A stretch of 64,000 bases of DNA from Eledone cirrhosa (taxonomy: Eukaryota): contig OZ024754.1 in the NCBI GenBank assembly GCA_964016885.1, positions 8,494,001 through 8,558,000 on the forward strand. Reading direction: 5' to 3'. Numbering within the stretch: the stretch's first letter is position 1; each line of letters starts with the position of its first letter. The position numbers were made by a program, and so were the translations under genes. Of this stretch, positions 740 to 15,275 are shown piece after piece. A model generated the notes under the pieces. The model saw nothing but the letters and a program-made list of their open reading frames with translations, did not search any database and was not told where the DNA came from.

Positions 740-1137
740 AGAAGAAAAAAGAAGAGGAAAAAGAAGAAAAAAAGAAAGAAAAAGGTTTCCCCTTGGAGAA
801 GAGGATTTCTTTCTTGAAAGTCTGTCTTTAAAATGTCTTCCATATAAATCTATTCTACACTTTCGGCCATGTTTCTATCACTTCCCTCATCCAACATCAT
901 CGCCACCATAACAGTTAACTTTATGACAGCCGAAAGTTGTTACTACTTGAAGAAGTTGAGGTTTTTAGTTTTATATTCCTATATTGGTTAATATATTGGC
1001 AGTGTCAAACTTCAATGCCACATACTCAATTAGCTATAATGGACTCTCACATGGATAGATCTGTTATTTTTATCTAAAGACATTTTTTTCAAATTCCACC
1101 CCGCCCGTCCCTTAAATCTGTCTAATTTCTCATTCTT

Positions 1138-1173
1138 TCTTCTGATGAAGGACTAGCGTCCGAAATGTTAAGA
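1138..1173 (+). ncRNA. Minimal type I hammerhead ribozyme motif (PLE-type), probably decayed
   Basis: TCTT-CTGATGA-A-GGAC-TAGC-GTCC-GAAA-TGTT-AAGA: stem I TCTT/AAGA, stem II GGAC/GTCC, conserved core. GAAATGTT rather than palindromic GAAACGTT suggests CpG decay. Confidence 0.6.
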
Positions 1174-1498
1174 CCTTCTTCCTGCTATTTCAAGTTTTAA
1201 CCTAATATATTCCTTCCATATACTGTACCGATTGTGTTGTTATTTCTGTTTACCTTTTACATATATATATATATATATATTGTTATATTTGGGGAGGGTC
1301 ATATTTGTGTAATATTGCCAGAATTAATAACAGAACACACTCACTGTTTGGTTGGTTTTCGCTTCTCGCTGTCTTTTATATATATATATCTGCGATCTAA
1401 CTTACTCGGTCCTCAATGTTGCCATTGACTGACCGGCGGTCAAAAATAATACAGATACAATATAGACACAAACACATATATATAGTTTACATAATTTA

Positions 1499-1536
1499 CA
1501 TAAATCTTTCGTTGCACATCTGCAACATCGTCAGTG
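1499..1536 (-). ncRNA. Hammerhead ribozyme core in the Penelope 3' UTR
   Basis: Minus strand CTGACGA-T-GTTGCA-GATG-TGCAAC-GAAA-GATTTA: canonical core with a perfect 6-bp stem II, sense to the element. Stem I is weak. Confidence 0.65.
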
Positions 1537-1802
1537 GTGTTATATTCATTGTTCCTCCTGTTGTGTTGTATGTCTACGCCATTTTTTTTGTTCAGTCTGT
1601 CTATATATTTATTTATTTATTTGCTTGTTTGTTTATCTTATTTTATTTTGTCTTCTTTGCGCATGCGTTTGCGTGTGTGTATAGTGTTATGTGTGATGTG
1701 TGACTAGTGTGTATAGTGTTGTGTCTGCTGGGTGACTAGTGTGTGTTTATGTGCTTGTGTATGTATTTGTTTATCTTATTTTTTTAAATTTTATTTACTT
1801 AT

Positions 1803-2538
1803 TTATACTTCTCTTAGGTCAGTGTTGTTTGTTTGGGTGTTGTTGTTGTTCCACTCATTCTTTCTGTTTAGCTTTGGTCTTCTAATTTCTATTTCACTGG
1901 CCTCTCTGATTTGCCTATCTGCTGGGTCATTCCTATGTTTAGATATTATTCTAATTTCTATGTTGTCTATGTTACCGTCATGTTGTTGTCTAGCATGTTC
2001 GTATAGTACTGACCCGTTTTTTCGTCCTTTTAGTTCCCCCCAGTGTTGGTCTATCCTTTCACCTATGCTACGAGCTGTCTCACCTATGTATGTTGTTGTC
2101 ATGTTTCTGCAAGTACCCTCTGTACATCTTATGCTATAGACTACGTTTCTAGTTTTACAGTTTATCCGGGGGTTCACCTTACATATGATACATTTCCTAT
2201 TGGTACAGTGGGTTTTCTTAAAAGGGTAGGTTTTGCTGATCAGGGATTTTATGGTGGTTCCTGGCTTTTCTACCACCTTTATTTTTAAGTGGGTCTTTCT
2301 CAGGGCCTTTCTACACTGGTTAGCTAATTTCCCTCCAGGGGTGGCGTCCACAAACATGACACTCTGATATCTCTGGTTGTCGTACCATGATGTGGCCTTC
2401 CCTATCTTATGTCTAGCCCTATCTAAGCTATTCCATGATTTGCTCCTGTATAGTGGGCAAATTCCTTTCATGTCCAGTTCTATGAGGGTCTTATACTTTT
2501 CCATGGCTCCTTCGTATACTCTGACTCTGTCTCTTTGG
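1803..2538 (-). pseudogene. Penelope-like ORF, linker/Zn-knuckle plus GIY-YIG endonuclease (C-terminal fragment)
   Basis: CTNRKCIIC..CKTRNVVYSIRC..YIGETARSIGERIDQH..LYEH..IREASEI..PKLN; frame is open upstream to QRDRVRVYEGA at the inversion breakpoint. Confidence 0.9.
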
Positions 2539-2542
2539 GTGT

Positions 2543-3122
2543 AGAATCTACACCCAAAATGAGGGAGCAGCCATCGGCGTCAGCATAGCTGGTGATGTTG
2601 CCAACCTTTTCATGGTATGGTGGGAAAGGAGACTTAAAGATCTCCTTAATGAAAGCTCCATAGACCTCATCATGTACTCTCGTTATGTAGACGATATCAA
2701 TATAGTTATAAGAACACCCCCACTAGAGAGCACTAACAAGTTTGATTTGGAACGTAGCACGATGGAAAGCATCCAGCAGATAGCTAATTCCATACACCAG
2801 AGTATAACTGTAACTATAGACTTCCCTTCCAAACACCCTAACAATAGACTACCTGTATTAGACACAGAACTCTGGATTAACACTATAGACGAGAGAGCCC
2901 AAATTCTCCACTCACACTATGCTAAACCCATGGCCTCCAAATACCTGATACTCAAAAACTCAGCAATGTCCAGTAGTGCTAAGTTTAATATTCTGATCGC
3001 AGATTTGGTACGAGTGATGAAGAATGTGTCCAGCATGTGCGACCCAACAGAAATGGAAGGACACATCCAACACTTCATCAACCGCATGCAGTTCTCTGGC
3101 TACAACCAAAGAGACAGAGTCA
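2543..3122 (+). pseudogene. Penelope-like reverse transcriptase fragment (palm and thumb), inverted
   Basis: YTQNEGAAIGVSIAGDVANLFM, YSRYVDDI, LPVLDTELW, MQFSGYNQRDRV; it ends on the same residues at which the minus-strand fragment begins. Confidence 0.9.
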
Positions 3123-3270
3123 CTTTTGGATAGGAGACCTGACCGGGAGGGAGGGAGGTTGAGGAATCTAAAGAATTTAGCGGATAGGTAATCGTGAAGA
3201 TCCTTTACGCTATAACTTTGTAATGAACCTCAACCTCCCTCCCTCCCGGTCAGGTCTCCTATCCAAAAGT
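3122..3270. repeat. Viral terminal hairpin (~149 nt)
   Basis: Perfect 43-bp stem 3122-3164/3228-3270 containing GGGAGGGAGGGAGG; the 63-nt interior pairs imperfectly (AAAG/CTTT, TAGCG/CGCTA, AGG/CCT, ATC/GAT). Confidence 0.8.
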
Positions 3271-3339
3271 TCAGTGCATAGCACAGTTAGGAGAGGGGAC
3301 AGGCAAAGATATCAAATTACAAAGCAAGATTTGACAGTT

Positions 3340-3500
3340 AAGAAATGACGCAATATTAAAGCTACATCAGCAAAAAATAATGCTTGCGTTAGCAAAAGTA
3401 TAAATAGAACCACGTGACAGTAATTCAATATGCTAACGTCAGCAAGAATCGAGATATAAAAACAAAGAGCGCGCAACTCAAACTGCCACAACTCAGCAGA
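3340..3500 (+). promoter_or_regulatory. Putative viral Pol II promoter (mirror copy ~8190-8350 on -)
   Basis: TATAAATA at 3399-3406, TATAAAA at 3455-3461, E-box CACGTG at 3411, CRE-like TGACG/ACGTCA half-sites, all between the hairpin and ATG 3544. Confidence 0.5.
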
Positions 3501-3607
3501 CATCTTGCAGATACGAACGCCGTTACTCCGCAAAAAGATCAACATGAATTACGAAGATTTAAAGACGAGAGATCGAGATATGATTACTTCTTTGGCGGTA
3601 AGTCAGA

Positions 3608-5176
3608 ATGCCTTTACATTTACCAGGTTATAATTATTGTGGTCCATACACAAACAATTTACAAAAACAACCTGTTAACGAATTAGATAAATGCTGTCAA
3701 ATACACGACATAGAATACGGTAAAACAGAGGTAGATATAGCAGAAGCAGATAATAGATTAATACAGTGTTCTGAAAATATAGGCGGAGTAGCGGCGTTCG
3801 TAGTAGCAAACACAATCAAAGCTAAGAATTGGGTTATGCCACCGGCGAACAAAAAAAGAAGAGTAGAAGAAGAACAATCTAAGAAAAATCAAGAAGACCT
3901 TTGCGACGCATCAGACGAAGACTTTGTATCACAAGACAGCGGAATTAATAGTCAAACAGTAGACATGGGTGATCCACATGTAGGTCCAGCTCCTGGGGGC
4001 TCAGCAGCAATGGCAAGTGGAGATCAACCACCAGACATAGGCGATAAAAATCCAATCGTTTCAAAAAAATTTTCAAGAACTTTCATACACTACATAAACT
4101 GTTCGGATAATCCTACAGATAAAGCAATATACAAAACACATGATGATGAATACATAGAATTAACAATAAAACACAGAGCATCATACATACCATATACAGA
4201 ATTAAAAGCTAGTATGACAATAGCAGAATTAGAAACATATTTAACACCTTGCAATAATTTCAGAGTTAAATCATGTGGGTATCAAATATCAAATATAATT
4301 CCTTTAACAGACGAATTAGGAACATTACAAAATACAACTACAACTAACACAACATTCAATACAAGACCATGGATGATACATTACGTCGATAATAAATACT
4401 GTTTATTTCCTAATCAAACATACTTAATAGGACATTTAAACAATAATTGGACACATAACGTACCATTAACAAGGGAAGAAGGGAAACTAAATCAATGCAT
4501 TACAAATAGATTAATTAGAAAAGATTGGTGGTTATGGCAAGATACTAAGGCAGCGAAACCTACAGAACAAGAAATACCAGCAGAAGAAATATTGTCTTAT
4601 TTAAACACTGGTCAATTTCAATTCGTTTACGCTGGGGACACAGCAGGATATACATGGGTAAATAGAACTCCAAGTTGGTTCAATATGATGAACTATTATG
4701 CATTTAATTCTACATACGAACCACCAACAATAAAACTAACTAACGGGTTACCATGCGAAATAAATACTTATTCGGGGGCTAAAAAAAGTGCATGGGCACC
4801 AACGGAAAAAGGGGCATGGAGTAAATCAATGGCGGTAGATAAATCAAATGAAGAACAAAACACTGGCAGATCACATTTAACACAGTTTCCAATAAATCCA
4901 TCTAATCCACCGCCAATAGCTACTTTAGATTCTGTACCTATTCTAGATTCTCAAAACAATCCGGCTAAAATATCATTCATGATCACAATAACTTATCATT
5001 CTGAAATAGATTTCGAATATATTTCTGGCAGTCCACAAACCATGGGTTGGATGGCATGGGGAAAAGACAATGCAACAATACAAAATTCAGCCAAAACAAA
5101 TCTATGTAAATGGCCGCAAGGTTTACGTAATTATGAAATAACGAGAGTCGGTAAAACCCGACAAGCTCATCGTTAA
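3608..5176 (+). CDS. VP1: Parvoviral capsid protein VP1 with N-terminal phospholipase A2, 522 aa (copy 1)
   Basis: LPGYNYCGP Ca-loop-like motif, PVNELDKCCQIHDIEY catalytic HDxxY, ADxxL, NLS-like PPANKKRR, Gly-rich MGDPHVGPAPGGS (possible VP2 start), then a Thr/Asn-rich beta-type body. Confidence 0.9.
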   Translation: MPLHLPGYNYCGPYTNNLQKQPVNELDKCCQIHDIEYGKTEVDIAEADNRLIQCSENIGGVAAFVVANTIKAKNWVMPPANKKRRVEEEQSKKNQEDLCDASDEDFVSQDSGINSQTVDMGDPHVGPAPGGSAAMASGDQPPDIGDKNPIVSKKFSRTFIHYINCSDNPTDKAIYKTHDDEYIELTIKHRASYIPYTELKASMTIAELETYLTPCNNFRVKSCGYQISNIIPLTDELGTLQNTTTTNTTFNTRPWMIHYVDNKYCLFPNQTYLIGHLNNNWTHNVPLTREEGKLNQCITNRLIRKDWWLWQDTKAAKPTEQEIPAEEILSYLNTGQFQFVYAGDTAGYTWVNRTPSWFNMMNYYAFNSTYEPPTIKLTNGLPCEINTYSGAKKSAWAPTEKGAWSKSMAVDKSNEEQNTGRSHLTQFPINPSNPPPIATLDSVPILDSQNNPAKISFMITITYHSEIDFEYISGSPQTMGWMAWGKDNATIQNSAKTNLCKWPQGLRNYEITRVGKTRQAHR

Positions 5177-5183
5177 AGTAATA

Positions 5184-6473
5184 TTACAACAAATCTATCC
5201 ATTTTATATTTGCAGAAAAGAGGAATAAATTTTTATCGAATTTATTATTCGAAGTTATTATTAATGGTGTCCTGTGTACTATTTGGTCTTGACGGAATTT
5301 AACTGATACCTCAGTATCCGTCCCTTCCGCCAATTTCTTAAAAGTTTGTAGAGTTTCAAGAGAGAAGTTAGGTTCTTCTATGAGACCTAGCTCCACATTT
5401 ATTAAATTCTGGAAAGGGAAGCTGCTCGTTCCTTGAATGGTACTGACGTGCGTAAACATGTTAGATATACTACGCGCGATCATTGATTTGCCTGTGTTAG
5501 GCAGGCCGGTGAATACAAGCAAGTTTGTTTTGGCTTTGTATTTATTAAGCAAATCCCAAATACATTTTACAAGTTCTTCTTCGTCTATGTCTTGTGTCAT
5601 AATTATTGATCTAAATATTTTCAACGAAGTTTCGGTATCCATCCATAATTTGGTGTTTTCAAATTGTTTCCAATTCATATTCTCGAACTTTTCTTTGAAT
5701 GGCATTATCAGTGTTTTCAGTTTCACGCATTCGAGTACTTTCTTCATGACGCTGTCGTACATGGGATGACTGATAGCGCGCATGAAATTTTCGTTGTTTG
5801 CTCGGTTAAGCCAGTGTGTTTTCATCTCCTGTTCGTTTCGAAATTTTTTTGATGTGAATATATACGTCAGGTAGTTGAATAGAGTTAAAGTCGTACCACT
5901 TCTGCTTTTGAATGTCGGTTCGTCCGTGGCATGTCTTGTTGATGTACTCGTTTTAGGTGTTGGGCTACATTTAGGTACGTATTCTTTCGAGCACCATTCT
6001 GCAAATTCAGAGTTTATAGAACCGAGGCCTTTTATCAGTAAATATCTCGGTGGTTGGCAGAAGTAATTGGCCATGCTGCTAGGGAACTTTACTCTTTGAC
6101 ACTCTGGTATGTATCGCGCTAACTGTGTTCCCTTTTTGTACAAGCTTCTCACGTATTTGAGACGTTGGTTTTCTCCTGGTCTTATCTCTGAATTCCATAT
6201 GATATGGAAGTGGTTGAACGCATTCCATTCCTTTTTGTCGCATATTTTTGATTCTTTTGGATGGTAAATTACTGTTGCCTTGTTGATTTGAATAAATTCT
6301 ATTATTTTTCTGTTTGCATTAATTAGAAAGTTATTCTTGTATGCCCCTTCTTTTTCGTCGAAATCGTTTGTTGTTATTTCGTCGTGTTGTATCGGAACTC
6401 TACCGTTGTCCCAACTGAAGTCCGTTTCAAGTATCCAAGGATAAATGCACATGTACATTTTTATTCCTCTTTT
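5184..6473 (-). CDS. NS1: Parvoviral NS1/Rep main exon (HUH endonuclease plus SF3 helicase), C-terminus probably truncated at 5230
   Basis: FNHFHIIW (HUH), NYFCQPPR (catalytic Tyr), FTGLPNTGKS (Walker A), LIEEP (Walker B), FKKLAEG..VKF (B'), TPLIITSN (motif C). The last 14 aa are read from the antisense of the left arm. Confidence 0.9.
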   Translation of the reverse strand, partial: KRGIKMYMCIYPWILETDFSWDNGRVPIQHDEITTNDFDEKEGAYKNNFLINANRKIIEFIQINKATVIYHPKESKICDKKEWNAFNHFHIIWNSEIRPGENQRLKYVRSLYKKGTQLARYIPECQRVKFPSSMANYFCQPPRYLLIKGLGSINSEFAEWCSKEYVPKCSPTPKTSTSTRHATDEPTFKSRSGTTLTLFNYLTYIFTSKKFRNEQEMKTHWLNRANNENFMRAISHPMYDSVMKKVLECVKLKTLIMPFKEKFENMNWKQFENTKLWMDTETSLKIFRSIIMTQDIDEEELVKCIWDLLNKYKAKTNLLVFTGLPNTGKSMIARSISNMFTHVSTIQGTSSFPFQNLINVELGLIEEPNFSLETLQTFKKLAEGTDTEVSVKFRQDQIVHRTPLIITSNNKFDKNLFLFSANIKWIDLL

Positions 6474-6512
6474 CTGCAAATATAAAATGGATAGATTTGT
6501 TGTAATATTACT

Positions 6513-8081
6513 TTAACGATGAGCTTGTCGGGTTTTACCGACTCTCGTTATTTCATAATTACGTAAACCTTGCGGCCATTTACATAGATTTGTTTTGGCT
6601 GAATTTTGTATTGTTGCATTGTCTTTTCCCCATGCCATCCAACCCATGGTTTGTGGACTGCCAGAAATATATTCGAAATCTATTTCAGAATGATAAGTTA
6701 TTGTGATCATGAATGATATTTTAGCCGGATTGTTTTGAGAATCTAGAATAGGTACAGAATCTAAAGTAGCTATTGGCGGTGGATTAGATGGATTTATTGG
6801 AAACTGTGTTAAATGTGATCTGCCAGTGTTTTGTTCTTCATTTGATTTATCTACCGCCATTGATTTACTCCATGCCCCTTTTTCCGTTGGTGCCCATGCA
6901 CTTTTTTTAGCCCCCGAATAAGTATTTATTTCGCATGGTAACCCGTTAGTTAGTTTTATTGTTGGTGGTTCGTATGTAGAATTAAATGCATAATAGTTCA
7001 TCATATTGAACCAACTTGGAGTTCTATTTACCCATGTATATCCTGCTGTGTCCCCAGCGTAAACGAATTGAAATTGACCAGTGTTTAAATAAGACAATAT
7101 TTCTTCTGCTGGTATTTCTTGTTCTGTAGGTTTCGCTGCCTTAGTATCTTGCCATAACCACCAATCTTTTCTAATTAATCTATTTGTAATGCATTGATTT
7201 AGTTTCCCTTCTTCCCTTGTTAATGGTACGTTATGTGTCCAATTATTGTTTAAATGTCCTATTAAGTATGTTTGATTAGGAAATAAACAGTATTTATTAT
7301 CGACGTAATGTATCATCCATGGTCTTGTATTGAATGTTGTGTTAGTTGTAGTTGTATTTTGTAATGTTCCTAATTCGTCTGTTAAAGGAATTATATTTGA
7401 TATTTGATACCCACATGATTTAACTCTGAAATTATTGCAAGGTGTTAAATATGTTTCTAATTCTGCTATTGTCATACTAGCTTTTAATTCTGTATATGGT
7501 ATGTATGATGCTCTGTGTTTTATTGTTAATTCTATGTATTCATCATCATGTGTTTTGTATATTGCTTTATCTGTAGGATTATCCGAACAGTTTATGTAGT
7601 GTATGAAAGTTCTTGAAAATTTTTTTGAAACGATTGGATTTTTATCGCCTATGTCTGGTGGTTGATCTCCACTTGCCATTGCTGCTGAGCCCCCAGGAGC
7701 TGGACCTACATGTGGATCACCCATGTCTACTGTTTGACTATTAATTCCGCTGTCTTGTGATACAAAGTCTTCGTCTGATGCGTCGCAAAGGTCTTCTTGA
7801 TTTTTCTTAGATTGTTCTTCTTCTACTCTTCTTTTTTTGTTCGCCGGTGGCATAACCCAATTCTTAGCTTTGATTGTGTTTGCTACTACGAACGCCGCTA
7901 CTCCGCCTATATTTTCAGAACACTGTATTAATCTATTATCTGCTTCTGCTATATCTACCTCTGTTTTACCGTATTCTATGTCGTGTATTTGACAGCATTT
8001 ATCTAATTCGTTAACAGGTTGTTTTTGTAAATTGTTTGTGTATGGACCACAATAATTATAACCTGGTAAATGTAAAGGCAT
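6513..8081 (-). CDS. VP1: Parvoviral capsid protein VP1 with PLA2, 522 aa (copy 2, identical translation)
   Basis: Translation identical to 3608-5176. Confidence 0.9.
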   Translation of the reverse strand: MPLHLPGYNYCGPYTNNLQKQPVNELDKCCQIHDIEYGKTEVDIAEADNRLIQCSENIGGVAAFVVANTIKAKNWVMPPANKKRRVEEEQSKKNQEDLCDASDEDFVSQDSGINSQTVDMGDPHVGPAPGGSAAMASGDQPPDIGDKNPIVSKKFSRTFIHYINCSDNPTDKAIYKTHDDEYIELTIKHRASYIPYTELKASMTIAELETYLTPCNNFRVKSCGYQISNIIPLTDELGTLQNTTTTNTTFNTRPWMIHYVDNKYCLFPNQTYLIGHLNNNWTHNVPLTREEGKLNQCITNRLIRKDWWLWQDTKAAKPTEQEIPAEEILSYLNTGQFQFVYAGDTAGYTWVNRTPSWFNMMNYYAFNSTYEPPTIKLTNGLPCEINTYSGAKKSAWAPTEKGAWSKSMAVDKSNEEQNTGRSHLTQFPINPSNPPPIATLDSVPILDSQNNPAKISFMITITYHSEIDFEYISGSPQTMGWMAWGKDNATIQNSAKTNLCKWPQGLRNYEITRVGKTRQAHR

Positions 8082-8091
8082 TCTGACTTAC

Positions 8092-8145
8092 CGCCAAAGA
8101 AGTAATCATATCTCGATCTCTCGTCTTTAAATCTTCGTAATTCAT
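8092..8145 (-). CDS. Putative NS1 exon 1 (MNYEDLKTRDRDMITSLA); mirror copy 3544-3597 on +
   Basis: ATG plus 17 codons ending at a consensus donor GCG|GTAAGT, phase 0, compatible with the acceptor TTTTATATTTGCAG| at 6474. Confidence 0.65.
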
Positions 8146-8528
8146 GTTGATCTTTTTGCGGAGTAACGGCGTTCGTATCTGCAAGATGTCTGCTGAGTTG
8201 TGGCAGTTTGAGTTGCGCGCTCTTTGTTTTTATATCTCGATTCTTGCTGACGTTAGCATATTGAATTACTGTCACGTGGTTCTATTTATACTTTTGCTAA
8301 CGCAAGCATTATTTTTTGCTGATGTAGCTTTAATATTGCGTCATTTCTTAACTGTCAAATCTTGCTTTGTAATTTGATATCTTTGCCTGTCCCCTCTCCT
8401 AACTGTGCTATGCACTGAACTTTTGGATAGGAGACCTGACCGGGAGGGAGGGAGGTTGAGGTTCATTACAAAGTTATAGCGTAAAGGATCTTCACGATTA
8501 CCTATCCGCTAAATTCTTTAGATTCTTT

Positions 8529-8530
<2 letters not shown>

Positions 8531-8605
<75 letters not shown>
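8531..8605. repeat. (TA)n microsatellite abutting the viral right end
   Basis: Directly visible. Confidence 0.95.
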
Positions 8606-8606
<1 letters not shown>

Positions 8607-8770: not shown

Positions 8771-9504
8771 AGTTTCATAATATGTTGTTATTTGTAAACA
8801 CCTATGATTTAAAATACGGTTTGAAATGCAAAAAAAAAAAACATTTTTTTTGTTTTTAATAGAATTTAGCATTGCCTTTTATCGATTAAAAGCCGAATTT
8901 ATCGATTGGCACTTTAGACGGCCATCAGAATTTCTCTTTGATGCAAGTTGACATAGCAGGGAACACAGTGGAATTCTTTTACCAATAACAGACGCCAACA
9001 GCCAGACCACGAGAAATTATCATGTCTTTCATTTTATTCAACTTTAATGTATAGGCACGTTTAAGTCAGTGAGGACTTTTCTTTGTGATGATTCAACACA
9101 TGTACATATCTGTGAGTGTGTGTGTGTGTTTACGTATATATGTATATGTGTACGTACGTACATCATACATATATGATGGCTGCAACTCGATTTCGAGTAA
9201 TGCCATTACTTTATACTTAAGCTTGGGATTCACGGATGTGGCTTTTTAGTCCTGCTAGGGACTTGCCTATGACCAGCAATGCTATGCATCACAAATAATG
9301 TCACATATCAAGCAATTCCTGCGCTTGAAGCTTTTTAAGTGAGGAAAAGATTTGCAAGGGGCCAATCCCACTCTCTGAACATCAAATGCATTTGTCCAAA
9401 AAGAACTGGTCTACATCATTGGTTGCAAACGAAGTCGCAGGTTTTATATCAGAGTGACCTTCTCTTAGAGAGATGCCTTAATGCAAACTAGGGGTCTCTC
9501 GAGA

Positions 9505-11245
9505 CATATCTACAGCTAAGTTATGAAATTAACTCCTTAACCACAGAACTACAGTTGTACATAAGTTGTGAAGTAAAAACCTTAACTACACAACCATGTC
9601 TGCACAAATGTTGTGAAGTGAACTAACTCCTCAACAACACAACCATGTCTGTGTATATGTTGTGAAGTGAAAACCTTAACCAATCAACTATATCTTCACA
9701 GCTGTTCTCAAGAAAACGTATTAACACAGCCATGCCTACCTACACCTATGTTTTGAAAAAAACTCTTTAAGCACAGATCAATACCTAGACCTATGTTGTG
9801 AAGTGAACTCCTTAAACACACATCCATATATACACCTATGTTGTGAAGTGAACTGCTCAATCACACATCCATATATACACCAATGTTGTGAAGTGAACTG
9901 CTCAATCACACATCTATATATACACCAATGTTGGGAAGTGAACTCCTTAAACATACAGACATGCCCACACTTATGTTGTGTAATGAATTTCTCAACCACA
10001 CATTCATAACTACACCTGTTGTGAAGTGACCTCTTTAAACACAATGCTATGTCTACACATGTTTTTAACTTCGTTTTTAACTTCTTAACCACACAGCCAT
10101 ATATACACCTATGTTGTGACTAGAACTCCTTAACCACACAGCCATACCTATGTTGTAAAATGAACGCCGTAACTACACAGCCATATCAACACCTAAGTTG
10201 TGAAGAGAACTCTTTATCCACACAACCATACCTACAGCTAAGTTGTGAATTGAACTCCTTATCCACACAGTCATATCTACAGCTATGTTTTGAAGTGAAC
10301 TCCTTAAACACACAACTGTATCTAAACTTTGTTATAAAGAGAAATCTTCAACCACGTAGCTATAACTAAAGCTATGCTTGGAAGTGAAATCATTGATCAC
10401 CAGACATATCTACACATATGTTGTGAAATGAATTCCTTAACCACACAACGATGTCTACACTTACGTTGTGAAGTGGACACCACCTTAACCACACAGCCAT
10501 ATCTGCACCTAAGTTGTGAAAAAAACTCCTTAAACACACAGCCATACCTTCATCTATGAGGTGGAGTGAATTCCTTAACCACACAGCCATATCTACATAT
10601 AAATTGTGATAACGTTTTAAACACATATCGATATCTACACCTATGTTGTGAAGTGAACTCCTTAACCACACAGCCACAACTACACCTGTTGTGAAGTGAA
10701 CTCCTGATAAAAACAATCATAACTACACCTGTTGTGAAGTGAACTCCTGATGAAAACAATCATAACTACACCTGTTGTGAAGTGAACTCCTGATGAAAAC
10801 AGTCATAACTACACCTGTTGTGAAGTGAACTCCTTAACCACACAGCCACAACTACACCTGTTGTGAAGTGAACTCCTTAACCACACAGCCACAACTACAC
10901 CTGTTGTGAAGTGAACTCCTGATAAAAACAATCATAACTACACCTGTTGTGAAGTGAACTCCTGATGAAAACAGTCATAACTACACCTGTTGTGAAGTGA
11001 ACTCCTTAACCACACAGCCATAACTACACCTGTTGTGAAGTGAACTCCTTACCACACAGCCATAACTACACCTGTTGTGAAGTGAACTCCTGATAAAAAC
11101 AGTCATAACTACACCTGTTGTGAAGTGAACTCCTGATAAAAACAGTCATAACTACACCTGTTGTGAAGTGAACTCTTGATAAAAACAGTCATAACTACAC
11201 CTGTTGTGAAGTGAACTCTTGATAAAAACAGTCATAACTACACCT
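9505..11245. repeat. ~43-45-bp minisatellite, degenerate on the left and homogenised at 10670-11245
   Basis: Unit AACTACACCTGTTGTGAAGTGAACTCCT(TAACCACACAGCCAT or GATAAAAACAGTCAT); period 43 (10681 to 10724). Confidence 0.9.
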
Positions 11246-12479
11246 ATGTTGTTGGGGGTTTTTTTGTTTTTTGTTGTTGTTTTTTGTTGCTTGTTTTTAT
11301 TTAACGAAAGCACAAACAAATATAATATAAAGGAAAGGGAAAACAAAAAAGAGAGGAAAAGAAAGAGAAAAGAAAAAAGAAAAAAACAGAAGTGATTAGC
11401 ACACACATCTGAGACCACATACAACAAAGGGCAGGCAAAAGAGGTGGACAACCGAGCCGCTACCAGAATAACCTATGTTGTCAAGTAAACTCCTTAACCA
11501 CACAGCCATAGACTGTGGAAATATTTTACAAATCAAAAAAAAATTTTCACAAAACCTCGTAAACTGTTAATAAAAAGGCTTTACATAAAAACAAGTTATT
11601 TTGTGTCATTTTTGTGTTAATAGAAAGTGTATATGGACTTGCAGGGGAATGAACTCTCTCCCTCTTAATCGGATCTAAAAAATAGTTCAATAATATTTGT
11701 TATAAAATGGGCTTTCGAAAGAGTCCCAGTAAAAAAAAAAATAGGGAAAAAAAATCAGAGAAAGGAAGTGAGCTCTTTAAAATACTTTCAGAGTTGTCCG
11801 TCTTAAACTGATAAAAAGAAGTTTAATACATTAAATAGATAAAATAAAGGATTGTTTCTCGAAAGAGAAAAGGAATAGACATGCAAGAGAGTGTACTCTA
11901 TAAAATATTTTCTGAGTTGTCTCCCTTGACCGGAACTTAAAATATTACGAAAATAAAAGCATGAATCAAGTATTTTTTAAAAAATGAAATTTATTGATTA
12001 GTTTCAATATATACGAAAAAGAATATATGAAATAGAAAACATTAAATAAAAGATAGATTTTCAAGAATGGGCAAGAAACAATATGGGAGGAAACTTTTTG
12101 AATATTTTCAGAGTTGTGTCCCTTAACCGGAAGTTTAAAACTGTAAGAAATAGCGTTGAAATATACGAAGATATATATATATATATATATATGAGAAAAT
12201 TTGTCCATAAAATGTTTCCTAAAGTAATCTTTTTATAAATTTATCTTGATTGTGTCCTTAAGGAATACATTTCACAACATATCTGTAGATTTATCTATGT
12301 GATTAAGCAGTTCACTTCACTGCATAACTGTAAGTTTGACTGTTGTTAAAGTATTTACTTCACATTATAATAACGAAAATTATTGTGTACAGTGCTCAGG
12401 TGCACTACAACTAAAGTAAATTGAAAACTTAATTAACTGACATTTTCCAAACAATTCAAATGGGAGCCGACGTCTGTTG

Positions 12480-13059: not shown

Positions 13060-15275
13060 AGAATAACAAGTAGGAACCCTATCTGAAACAGGCACTGCTT
13101 GAAATTAAAATTGCACTCAAACTTTCACATGAGAAGGGGAGGGCGGAGAGAGAAGCCAGGGCCATAGAAAATATTAAAACAAACACAAAGGCCTTCTTTA
13201 AATTTGCAAAAGAGACTGCCTCGGTACACTGCAAGATTGGGCCACTTTTTCATAAAAATGGCTCATTGACCGAGGATCCTCAAGGGATAAGTGAAATACT
13301 GAAAGAACAGTACAAAAATGTGTTCATACCTCCACTGAGATACATGCAAATAACAAAGCCAGAGGAATTCTTTGATGACACAGCACTCCACGAAGAAATG
13401 GCAACCATCAACCACATAGATATAATGGAAGCCATAGAAGAAATGAGAGCAAACTCAGCTGCTGGACCTGATGGATTCCCAGCAGTCCTCCTAAAAACAT
13501 ACCTTAACAAGATCACTGAAGATTCTATTCAGATGTTCTCTGCTTGTGGTAAACCACCCAGAGAGCAAAAAGAAGGCATAATATGCCATATCCACAAAGG
13601 AGGAAGCAGAGCAAAGGCTAAAATGCCAGTCTCCCTGACGTCACATATCAGTAAGGTCATGGAATGAATTATTAGAAGGAAACTGATTATGTTCCTTGAG
13701 GAAAATGACCGCCTAACACTCAGCATGGCTTTCACCTAGGAAGAGGCTGCCTTACACAGCTTTTACAACATTACGACTGGGTACTGAAACAACTGCTGGA
13801 CAGCTCACATGTGGATGTAATATATGTTGACTTTGTGAAGGCCTTTGACAAGGTCGACCATGGAATGATATATCACAAACTACACAGACTCGGCATAACT
13901 GGAAAAGTAGGTGAGTGGCTACATGACTTCTTAAAAGACAAAAACCAGACTGTTGCAGCCAATGGGTCCCACTCAAAGGAAACATCAATAACTAGCGAGG
14001 TGCCCCAGGGCACAGTCTTAGGATCACAACTGTTTTTGGTGGCTCTTCCAGACATGCCCTCTGTAGTACATACAACATCCCTCACTAGCTATACTGATGA
14101 CACAAAGGTAGCACAGGCAATCAAGAACCTGGCTGATGCTACTATTTTACAAGATCTGGATGCCATATACAAATGGGCTGAGGACAACAACATGCAGTTC
14201 AATGCTGGAAAATTTCAAGCCCTACGATATCAACCTGCTAACACAATGACAGTACAGCACAGCTACACAGGACCAGGAGGAATTAAAATCCCTGTGTCGA
14301 AATCAATATGAGACCTGGGTATAGACATGACTGATGATGCAACGTTTCATTCACACATCATGAAAATGGCGACAATGTGCAGACAACTCGCCAGCTGGAT
14401 CTTGAGGACTTTCAAGACAAGAGACCGAGAAACCATGTTGGTACTATGGAGGACATTTGTCCTAAGCCGACCGGACTATTGTTCCCAACTATGGTGACCC
14501 TCATAGTGTCAAACTAACCACAGAGTTTGAAACAATCCAACAAAGTTACACCAAGAGGATTGCAACAATAAAGGAGATGAACTACTGGGAGAGGTTAAAA
14601 GAACTGAAACTCTAATCTTTGGAACGAAGGCAGGAGAGAAACGCTGTGATATACATATGGAAGATCCTGGAGGGAATAGCACAAAACTTTGGCATTGAGA
14701 GCTGGACCAACATCCGAACAGGACGTCACTGTGTGGTGCCAAAGGTCCCGTCTTTCACATCTAGAGTAAGGAGCAGATATTGCAATAACCTGGGGTTCAA
14801 GAAGGGGCCCTAGCTTTTTAATAAACTGCCAAAACATTTTAGAGATCTACATGGTGTGCATGTAGATATCTTCAAGAGACACCCAAACAGGACGTCACTG
14901 TGTGGTGCCAAAGGTCCCGTCTTTCATATCTAGAGTAAGGAGCAGATATTGCAATAGCATGGAGTTCAAGGGACCCTAGCTTTTTAATAAACTGCCAAAA
15001 AATTTGAGAGATCTACATGGTGTACATGTAGATATCTTCAAGAGACACCCAAACAGGACGTCACTGCGTGGTGCCAAAGGTCCCGTCTTTCATATCTAGA
15101 GTAAGGAGCAGATATTGCAATAGCATGGGGTTCAAGGGACCCTAGCTTTTTAATAAACTGCCAAAACATTTGAGAGATCTACATGGTGTGCATGTAGATA
15201 TCTTCAAGAGACATCTCAACATTCTACAGAGCAAGATCCCAGATGAACTTACATCACGAGGTTTGAGCAGCAGCA
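13060..15275 (+). mobile_element. Decayed CR1-like LINE, ORF2 reverse transcriptase region
   Basis: SAAGPDGF, PVSLTSHISKVME, DVIYVDFVKAFDKVDH, VPQGTVLG, YTDDTK, WAEDNNMQFNAGKF; several frameshifts and stops. Confidence 0.88.

Follow-up and report, generated by a model that had tools for sequence, protein, structure and literature searches.

Retrotransposon help is established for the endogenisation of RNA viruses, and AAV-type integrants are rearranged concatemers captured at breaks. LINE-1 elements reportedly undergo twin priming, as set out by Ostertag and Kazazian in 2001, and EN-less Penelope retroelements (PLEs) prime on exposed 3' ends. These EN-less elements occur at chromosome termini according to PMC8557442, and section 5 of the review PMC11357303 gives all parvoviruses a single order, with NS on the left and VP on the right. 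Within a 64,000-nt stretch of the Eledone cirrhosa genome (the window, contig OZ024754.1), pieces of a young PLE run directly into the terminal hairpin of a parvovirus, and the composite is held between two TA arrays.

Boundaries and retroelement pieces

On the left, a high-copy host repeat (1049..1257), shown by copy comparison to have copies ending in (TA)n, with a TA/CA run at the end of all nine other copies shown, gives way to the (TA)n target site at 1261..1280, the final 4 nt of which are common to the 3' end of the PLE. On the right lies the (TA)37.5 at 8531..8605, which had been proposed as the boundary from the sequence-only reading and which stands; the virus meets it through a 5-nt templated filler, producing an 8-nt tandem duplication of viral sequence on the forward strand (8516..8532). 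The same reading had placed the left edge at a (TA)n run at 1377-1389, but this is internal to the PLE, as family copies match through to 1277 and (TA)6 recurs at the same site inside the pLTR in 10 of the 21 family copies checked, with a shorter run in three and no match to the test pattern in eight. Hence the true left boundary is the array at 1261..1280, and an empty allele would join ~1260-1280 to 8531-8605, rather than ~1376 to 8606 as first predicted. Searches of the assembly with flank sequence found no alternative haplotype of either flank, and neither these searches nor a comparison of contigs revealed an empty or intermediate allele. A TSD is masked by the TA-array target.

The 3' piece of the PLE (1277..2544, reverse strand) comprises the pLTR with its (TA)6 at 1377-1389, the 3' UTR and the end of the ORF, encoding a CX4CxxC linker and a GIY-YIG endonuclease, and is followed by an inverted internal RT piece (2545..3122, forward strand). 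Domain order, linker and pLTR suggest a Neptune-type element, with Nematis being possible: the RT precedes a C-terminal GIY-YIG domain with internal cysteines, with a linker of the CX2-5CxxC form upstream of the latter. The RVT_1 match to the 199-aa RT piece was weak (E 0.016, below the cut-off), and the EN piece had no Pfam match. A pLTR, a tail, tandem and inverted arrangements, and a microsatellite target are all present in the family.

The inversion architecture is real, as in intact copies of the family the sequence runs colinearly through the break point. Its junction (2534..2558) is a 12-bp perfect palindrome with a loop of 1 nt, formed over a direct repeat (10/11) in the element, and occurs once in the genome; a fold-back at the same element site is also found in the family copy L031. 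The last 23 nt of the inverted RT piece duplicate 2522-2544 with one mismatch. The loop base is A on the forward strand and T on the reverse, as expected of a fold-back arising on the virus-side strand. A single cDNA with a fold-back, later losing one arm, is disfavoured by this one base, as it predicts a T loop on the forward strand. The loop-polarity argument depends on a single base, and the locus is a single case.

The architecture of the family was read from a sample of 18 copies. The family targets TA: 17 of these copies have a TA-rich 3' flank, and three have a non-TA 5' flank. An inverted piece starting at the element 3' end beside TA/CA is present in 10 of the 18, and an internally started inversion in none. 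Head-to-head pairs are common (L023/L024, L093/L094, L104/L105, L114/L115, L128, L131, L138), and the window looks like one of them in which virus stands in for an arm.

A capsid-first virus and its probable terminus

The RT piece ends at 3122 precisely where the viral hairpin begins, with one base shared and no host DNA between them, as originally noted. The hairpin (3122..3270) is 149 nt long, with a 43-bp stem, a 63-nt imperfect loop and a fold z of -16. Two older viral copies (L059 and L066) end at the same base, such that three of the 16 hairpin-side viral junctions, from a list read by eye, stop at this position, for which the simulated chance is 1-5%; 3122 is probably the natural viral terminus. 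The 1-nt overlap itself is at chance level, since a match of one base or more to the viral 3' end is found at ~40% of element positions (1418/3558). TA adjoins only 2 of the 16 hairpin-side ends.

The virus at this locus is a rearranged tail-to-tail dimer with a truncated NS1. On the forward strand, an 18-codon upstream exon (3544..3597), the predicted first exon of NS1, ends at a phase-0 GTAAGT donor, and is followed by an open capsid (VP1) ORF of 522 aa (3608..5176) with an N-terminal PLA2 domain (PF08398, E 2e-13), lying within the predicted NS1 intron (3598-5215). The left piece finishes with a polypyrimidine-YAG acceptor (5214-5215) and AATAAA (5200..5229), stopping at 5229, where it is joined tail-to-tail to the right piece via 1-nt microhomology. 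There NS1 runs on the reverse strand (5229..6458), with a HUH-like motif read from the translation and an SF3 helicase (PF01057, E 4e-16, above the cut-off; Walker A/B and motif C visible in the translation), truncated after ~aa 409 of ~547. The second piece (6460..8525, reverse strand) is an exact 2066-nt inverted copy of 3164-5229, holding the VP (8081-6513), the exon (8145-8092) and the hairpin without 42 nt of its outer arm, and it runs natively into NS1. Hence the apparent ambisense layout, with VP forward and then NS in reverse, is ruled out as an artefact of the tail-to-tail join.

An SF3-helicase NS1, palindromic hairpin termini and a PLA2 domain in VP1 all point to affiliation with the Parvoviridae. 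The VP matches two parvoviral capsids over short stretches of sequence, and its single-sequence structure model, with a pLDDT of 31, is too poor to use. Ten NS matches were to unnamed or octopus-annotated proteins, and relatives were found in neither viral nor metagenome contigs; the virus is known here from integrated copies alone. The genome holds 73 NS-like matches, many of them older and mutated, and the four near-identical loci among them record that the virus recently invaded the germline of a cephalopod-type host. Both orientations of the hairpin loop, together with head-to-head bridges, are seen in other viral copies (flip/flop).

Of the 15 viral stretches examined, 11 hold both ends, and in every one of these VP and NS1 share a strand, with VP upstream. 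The gap between VP and NS is ~50-80 nt and contains no hairpin, ruling out circular permutation as the source of the VP-first order. Splice signals are conserved across viral copies that are 60-80% identical. The VP gene probably lies within an NS1 intron that is conserved and of phase 0, and by its gene order the virus is read as a capsid-first monosense parvovirus. This order with its conserved splice signals is the sturdier result of the present work.

One event or several

The PLE and the virus were probably inserted in one event. In favour are a geometry that fits twin priming, a viral end that is probably the natural one, a PLE family that targets (TA)n, and low odds of the two meeting by chance. 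As in twin priming, the inverted segment begins near the start of the non-inverted segment, with a 23-nt overlap. Chance adjacency is low as the at least 2376 exact young PLE copies in the genome amount to 0.05-0.1% per TA array and ~0.2% of the genome. Both parts are very young: the 3' piece is 99.5% identical to its nearest sampled copy, the inverted RT piece is 100% identical to L022, and the virus is 99.8-100% identical among four loci.

The overall model, of a single germline event that was a one-off capture rather than the usual viral route, is put forward tentatively, at a little short of even. Firstly, the PLE endonuclease would have cut the (TA)n array, with cDNA 1 primed on the left TA at the element 3' end. 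Secondly, free rearranged parvoviral DNA, in the form of the tail-to-tail dimer, would have offered its natural 3' hairpin end, priming a second cDNA internally on that RNA, 23 nt within the part that was also copied as cDNA 1. Thirdly, and legible in the sequence itself, this second cDNA ran for 578 nt, made the 12-nt fold-back and joined cDNA 1 via the 10/11 microhomology. Fourthly, end joining would have linked the remaining viral end, cleaved inside its hairpin, to the TA array's right half, with the 8-nt templated duplication.

As no sampled copy starts internally, and the inverted pieces of 10 copies start at the element 3' end by TA/CA, a non-TA primer is implied here. That this primer was the viral 3'-OH is possible but doubtful; of the sub-models it asks for the least, and template jumping or end joining would fit as well. 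Against it, the 1-nt primer-template pairing is at chance level, and the 3' end of a hairpin is normally base-paired. The original proposal of retrotransposon-assisted integration is upheld in part: twin-priming geometry, terminus and TA targeting speak for it, whereas for viral 3'-OH priming the pairing is 1 nt, at chance level. RT capture of viral RNA is ruled out, both the hairpin and the unspliced intron being present.

Alternatively, the viral end could have been the acceptor in the same event, the second strand of a double TPRT having stalled at the inverted arm and then jumped, or been end-joined, to the viral terminus. RT template jumps can use 1-nt clamping, double-TPRT structures are present in 10 of the 18 PLE copies, and the natural terminus, TA target and 1-nt overlap are explained equally well; however, the second cDNA's own TA-primed end must vanish without trace, requiring more steps than priming by the viral end, and this account is distinctly unlikely.

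If the PLE came first, a head-to-head pair with 1.28-kb inverted arms and a ~555-nt spacer later broke, and virus captured during repair replaced one arm. Such pairs are frequent in the family, young copies occupy the ~0.2% of the genome given above, long inverted repeats, like (TA)n, break easily, and breaks are places where parvoviruses are captured. Yet this history is improbable, as it needs a left break at most 23 nt from the stem base, a right break inside the 75-nt TA run, no remaining pLTR and an intact viral terminus, and the inversion junction is found nowhere else in the genome without virus. The reverse order, in which virus settled in a TA array and a PLE later inserted at the virus-TA border using the chromosomal viral end as second primer, is decidedly improbable. 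The PLE family is very active, another young viral locus is flanked at both ends by TA/CA microsatellite and lacks the PLE, and, with three of 18 PLE copies keeping no TA at the 5' side, the missing TA at 3122 is compatible with it; but a young copy would have to reach one given array, at the 0.05-0.1% chance above, and all TA must go, exactly up to the viral terminus. An assembly chimera of episomal viral DNA and repeat is exceedingly improbable, for while the 2066-nt arms are 100% identical and none of the contigs listed spans 3122, the fold-backs, microhomologies and templated fillers at the junctions are of a biologically usual kind, a contig from X17, another sample in the study, reaches 30 nt across the 5229/5230 junction, which is specific to the window, and misses the bridging rule by a single base, and the many older, mutated copies make clear that the lineage does integrate.

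The PLE is not the general germline route of this virus, as none of the 15 other viral stretches examined abuts it, a negative answer to the check proposed from the sequence-only reading, and, of the six host junctions that belong to other young viral loci, three are in TA/CA microsatellites and have no PLE. The junction is a one-off capture, and a single case so far. If the preferred single-event reading is true, the end of a DNA virus acting as TPRT primer or acceptor would be a new route, and the RT of an EN+ PLE would be able to use a foreign hairpin end. The fullest version would have a parvovirus with its capsid nested in an NS1 intron invading the octopus germline, its hairpin end priming a telomerase-related PLE RT and the virus being pulled in through one step, with the inverted-repeat copy transcribed as a possible long dsRNA against the capsid gene; taken whole, this is somewhat unlikely.

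Relation to known systems

The locus resembles LINE-1 twin priming and chimeric insertions, as treated in bioRxiv 10.1101/2025.02.02.635956, in its 5' inversion and its two opposite cDNAs joined by microhomology. It differs in having a PLE as its element and viral DNA, in place of host DNA or a second RNA, as its second flank, and any TSD is hidden, the target being (TA)n. With the Neptune PLEs, as portrayed in PMC8557442, it shares a C-terminal GIY-YIG, a CX2-5CxxC linker (absent in Penelope/Poseidon), a pLTR with a short tail, a microsatellite bias and inverted 5'-truncated partner copies, although the inverted piece here starts internally and virus takes the place of the partner arm. Endogenous parvoviral elements and AAV-type integrants (PMC5013282) likewise have rearranged head-to-head and tail-to-tail pieces, truncated hairpins, junction microhomology and templated filler, and repeats nearby; unlike these, the present case has one probably intact terminus, which is fused to the inversion point of a retroelement, along with open ORFs and four near-identical loci.

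The best solved capsid matches are Penaeus monodon metallodensovirus (PmMDV; PDB 6WH3, E 5e-8 over 57 aa) and Syngnathus scovelli chapparvovirus (PDB 9NEK, E 0.002 over 50 aa). Hairpin lengths are alike, at 161 nt in the compared known virus and 149 nt here, whereas the VP here has a PLA2 domain and that of PmMDV does not. A capsid-in-NS1-intron layout was not found in the literature searched, the 'unique' organisation of PmMDV lying outside the comparison. With VP upstream of NS1, the virus departs from the NS-left/VP-right (or ambisense) rule as worded in section 5 of PMC11357303. This rule is a described regularity and not a criterion of the Parvoviridae, as the same review admits PmMDV on its SF3 helicase and capsid symmetry. 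The capsid-first order, with its conserved splice signals, widens the known parvovirus design space.

Structure of a young composite

The composite of parvovirus and Penelope-like element (PLE) is real and young, with one boundary misplaced in the sequence-only reading. It is bounded on the left by (TA)n at 1261-1280, the tail of a high-copy repeat. Rightwards from there come the minus-strand 3' piece of the PLE (1277-2544), the inversion junction (2534-2558), which is a 12-bp palindrome around a 1-nt loop, and an inverted reverse transcriptase (RT) piece of the PLE (2545-3122). The (TA)n at 1377-1389, previously taken as the left boundary, lies inside the PLE, with family copies aligning through it as far as 1277. 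The virus enters with a 149-nt hairpin (3122-3270) and an open VP1 capsid ORF with PLA2 (3608-5176), and the viral insertion as a whole consists of two pieces that meet tail-to-tail and share 1 nt of microhomology at the join. The NS1 replication gene piece (5229-6458, minus strand), ending at amino acid 409 of about 547, is adjoined on its right by an exact, inverted 2066-nt copy of 3164-5229; an 8-nt templated duplication then leads into the (TA)37.5 at the right end. Elsewhere in the window are, at 13074-14311 and 1-370, frameshifted non-LTR retrotransposon RT fragments (judged by eye from translation) and two tandem 219-bp SINE-like units; a minisatellite array of 43-45-bp units (9500-11250); and, ~24 kb from the insertion, a 71-bp satellite (32418-64000, ~445 copies, 95% identity, strong C skew) that runs past the window end.

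The PLE carries a C-terminal GIY-YIG domain with CX4CxxC before it, a linker type present in Neptune and Nematis and absent from Penelope and Poseidon (PMC8557442). A 38-mer across the break has 2376 exact matches genome-wide, and the window's element is 99.5-100% identical to its nearest sampled copies. Architecture was compared at 18 single loci, seen in 8-kb views and picked from the first 30 matches on contig C1, leaving aside tandem or paired copies and one known from a 3-kb view only. Ten of these copies have an inverted piece beginning at the PLE 3' end and eight are simple truncations; an internally started inversion was found in none of the 18. The 3' flank was TA-rich in 17/18, a sign that this family targets (TA)n, and the 5' flank was clearly non-TA in three. 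Copies often lie head-to-head as pairs with long inverted arms, and tandem units of ~4.15 kb are found as well (L122-L123, L131); one copy has an open frame of 1130 codons.

The window's inversion junction is unique genome-wide, and is built on the sole 10/11 direct repeat of its 11-mer in the 3.6 kb examined; another PLE copy, L031, folds back at the same site. The loop base of the palindrome, an A on the plus strand, fits a fold-back by cDNA running from the virus side, on the evidence of this one base. Short fold-back hairpins are also seen at PLE 5' truncation points (L031, 1482-1540; L131, 2796-2850).

Viral gene order and relatives

An ambisense reading of the window is ruled out: VP and NS1 share a strand, with VP first, in all 11 of the 15 stretches examined in which the presence of both the VP end and the NS start makes gene order informative, with a spacing of 52-81 nt (283 in one partly aligned case). 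An 18-codon ORF (3544-3597) terminates at a phase-0 GTAAGT donor, and a YAG acceptor (5214-5215) is in frame with NS1. Among older copies, the donor and 18-codon peptide recur at 9/11 VP starts, and a phase-0 acceptor lies 15 nt ahead of NS at 7/7 NS starts; a contig from sequencing run X17 starts at 6474, exactly where a spliced and an unspliced path would come together. Hence the VP gene probably lies within an intron of NS1, the acceptor being weakly supported by the data and the donor predicted from conservation. This capsid-first, probably intron-nested layout, noted in the window and at loci L051-L070, is the better supported surprise here. Some copies have a second, different hairpin downstream of NS.

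For both viral proteins, those relatives that bear names were annotated in Octopus species, which suggests an octopus-type host. Neither octopus parvoviral elements, nor capsid-first parvoviruses, nor parvovirus capture by PLEs or twin priming was described in the titles and abstract openings searched, mostly of literature open without subscription, and novelty is not thereby proven. The main text of PMC13282606 contains neither 'parvo' nor 'viral'; parvovirus-related sequences in six molluscs are described in PMC5013282, and such hosts may stand in its supplementary tables.

Viral termini and other viral copies

Each copy's outer hairpin arm was compared with its own inner arm, as a hairpin cut within the stem would also seem to start at the junction. 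The window and viral copies L059 and L066 end at the same base, L060 and L052 extend 10 and 80 nt past it, and at the remaining 11/16 hairpin-side ends the cut falls within the loop or an arm (junctions read by eye). As the simulated chance of three of 16 ends falling at one base is 1-5%, 3122 is probably the natural viral terminus, and we agree with its earlier assignment as the negative-strand 3' end, on the promoter-proximal side.

The young hairpin arm has nine matches at exactly four loci, mutually 99.8-100% identical across VP and NS; the NS piece is matched at 73 places genome-wide, many of them interrupted by stops. The young loci lie on contigs C5, C10, C14 (the window's own) and C998 of this 3.0-Gb animal assembly, all four rearranged, and the rearrangements in young and older (L059-L070) loci include fold-backs, head-to-head hairpin bridges, and flip and flop loops. 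The proposed check for other parvoviral copies next to this PLE gave no case: 15 other viral stretches were examined, 12 older and 3 young, and the full unit matched none of them. A looser search returned a 48-nt piece resembling the PLE terminal repeat (pLTR) several hundred bases away from an older viral copy, and a 389-nt PLE piece ~8 kb from one young copy. The remaining young loci have six host junctions, three of which fall in TA/CA microsatellites. Hence the virus integrates without PLE cDNA, though PLE endonuclease might make the breaks it uses.

Of the 16 hairpin-side ends, only two sit against TA, and each of these bears a short templated duplication. One segment of the hairpin, the same in both cases, forms a short tandem duplication beside TA-rich host DNA at 8516-8532 in the window and 1210-1250 in L054; at these two independent viral ends this suggests templated end joining. 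Remoter NS1-like sequences of 25-36% identity lie no more than a few kb from main-lineage copies (L065, 737-1312; L068, 6557-8986), so that single loci collect more than one kind of parvovirus.

One insertion event or two

Virus and PLE probably integrated in one event; this and the likelihoods of the PLE-first, virus-first and artefact readings are judgements. That the viral end acted as primer within this event is a tentative proposal. The original claim, of a single integration primed by the viral 3'-OH, survives in part: co-integration is likely, and priming is plausible though unproven, in a single case with 1 nt of pairing between viral end and PLE RNA, such as occurs at ~40% of positions. 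The viral end may instead have been an acceptor in the same event, RT template jumping being known behaviour, and this we consider unlikely. Less likely again is that the PLE came first: inverted repeats are fragile, but this order would require one break no further than 23 nt from the inversion point and a second within the TA run. The virus arriving first is more doubtful still, as all TA must then have gone, exactly up to the viral terminus. Either sequential order calls for both an infrequent hit and an exactly placed end. TA arrays number ~760-1465 per Mb in the 200 kb sampled around viral loci, a choice of region that may bias the figure; the chance of a given array holding a young PLE copy is 0.05-0.1%, and young PLE copies make up ~0.2% of the genome. 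Flank searches of the assembly and contigs from four runs returned no empty allele.

It is very improbable that the composite is an artefact: among the contig pieces listed from four runs compared with 800-6459, none spans 3122, but an X17 contig matches 5200-6459 with one difference, so that the window-specific 5229/5230 junction is crossed with a margin of 30 nt, a single base under the limit for bridging. X17 comes from a second sample, filed under the same study and species name, and may derive from the same animal; its kind is not on record. It differs by T>C at 59 places in 800-6459, and each of the remaining three runs at 14 or fewer, which hints at edited RNA, a pattern that alleles could mimic; with the junction contig, this is possibly an edited transcript of this inverted-repeat locus. 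Low-depth pieces on 3242-6175 from X1 and X18, runs with other organism labels, are 98-100% identical to virus and PLE, and could reflect related hosts, carry-over or diet. As for known systems, twin priming, with its two oppositely primed cDNAs on one RNA, occurs in LINE-1, and AAV is captured at DNA breaks.
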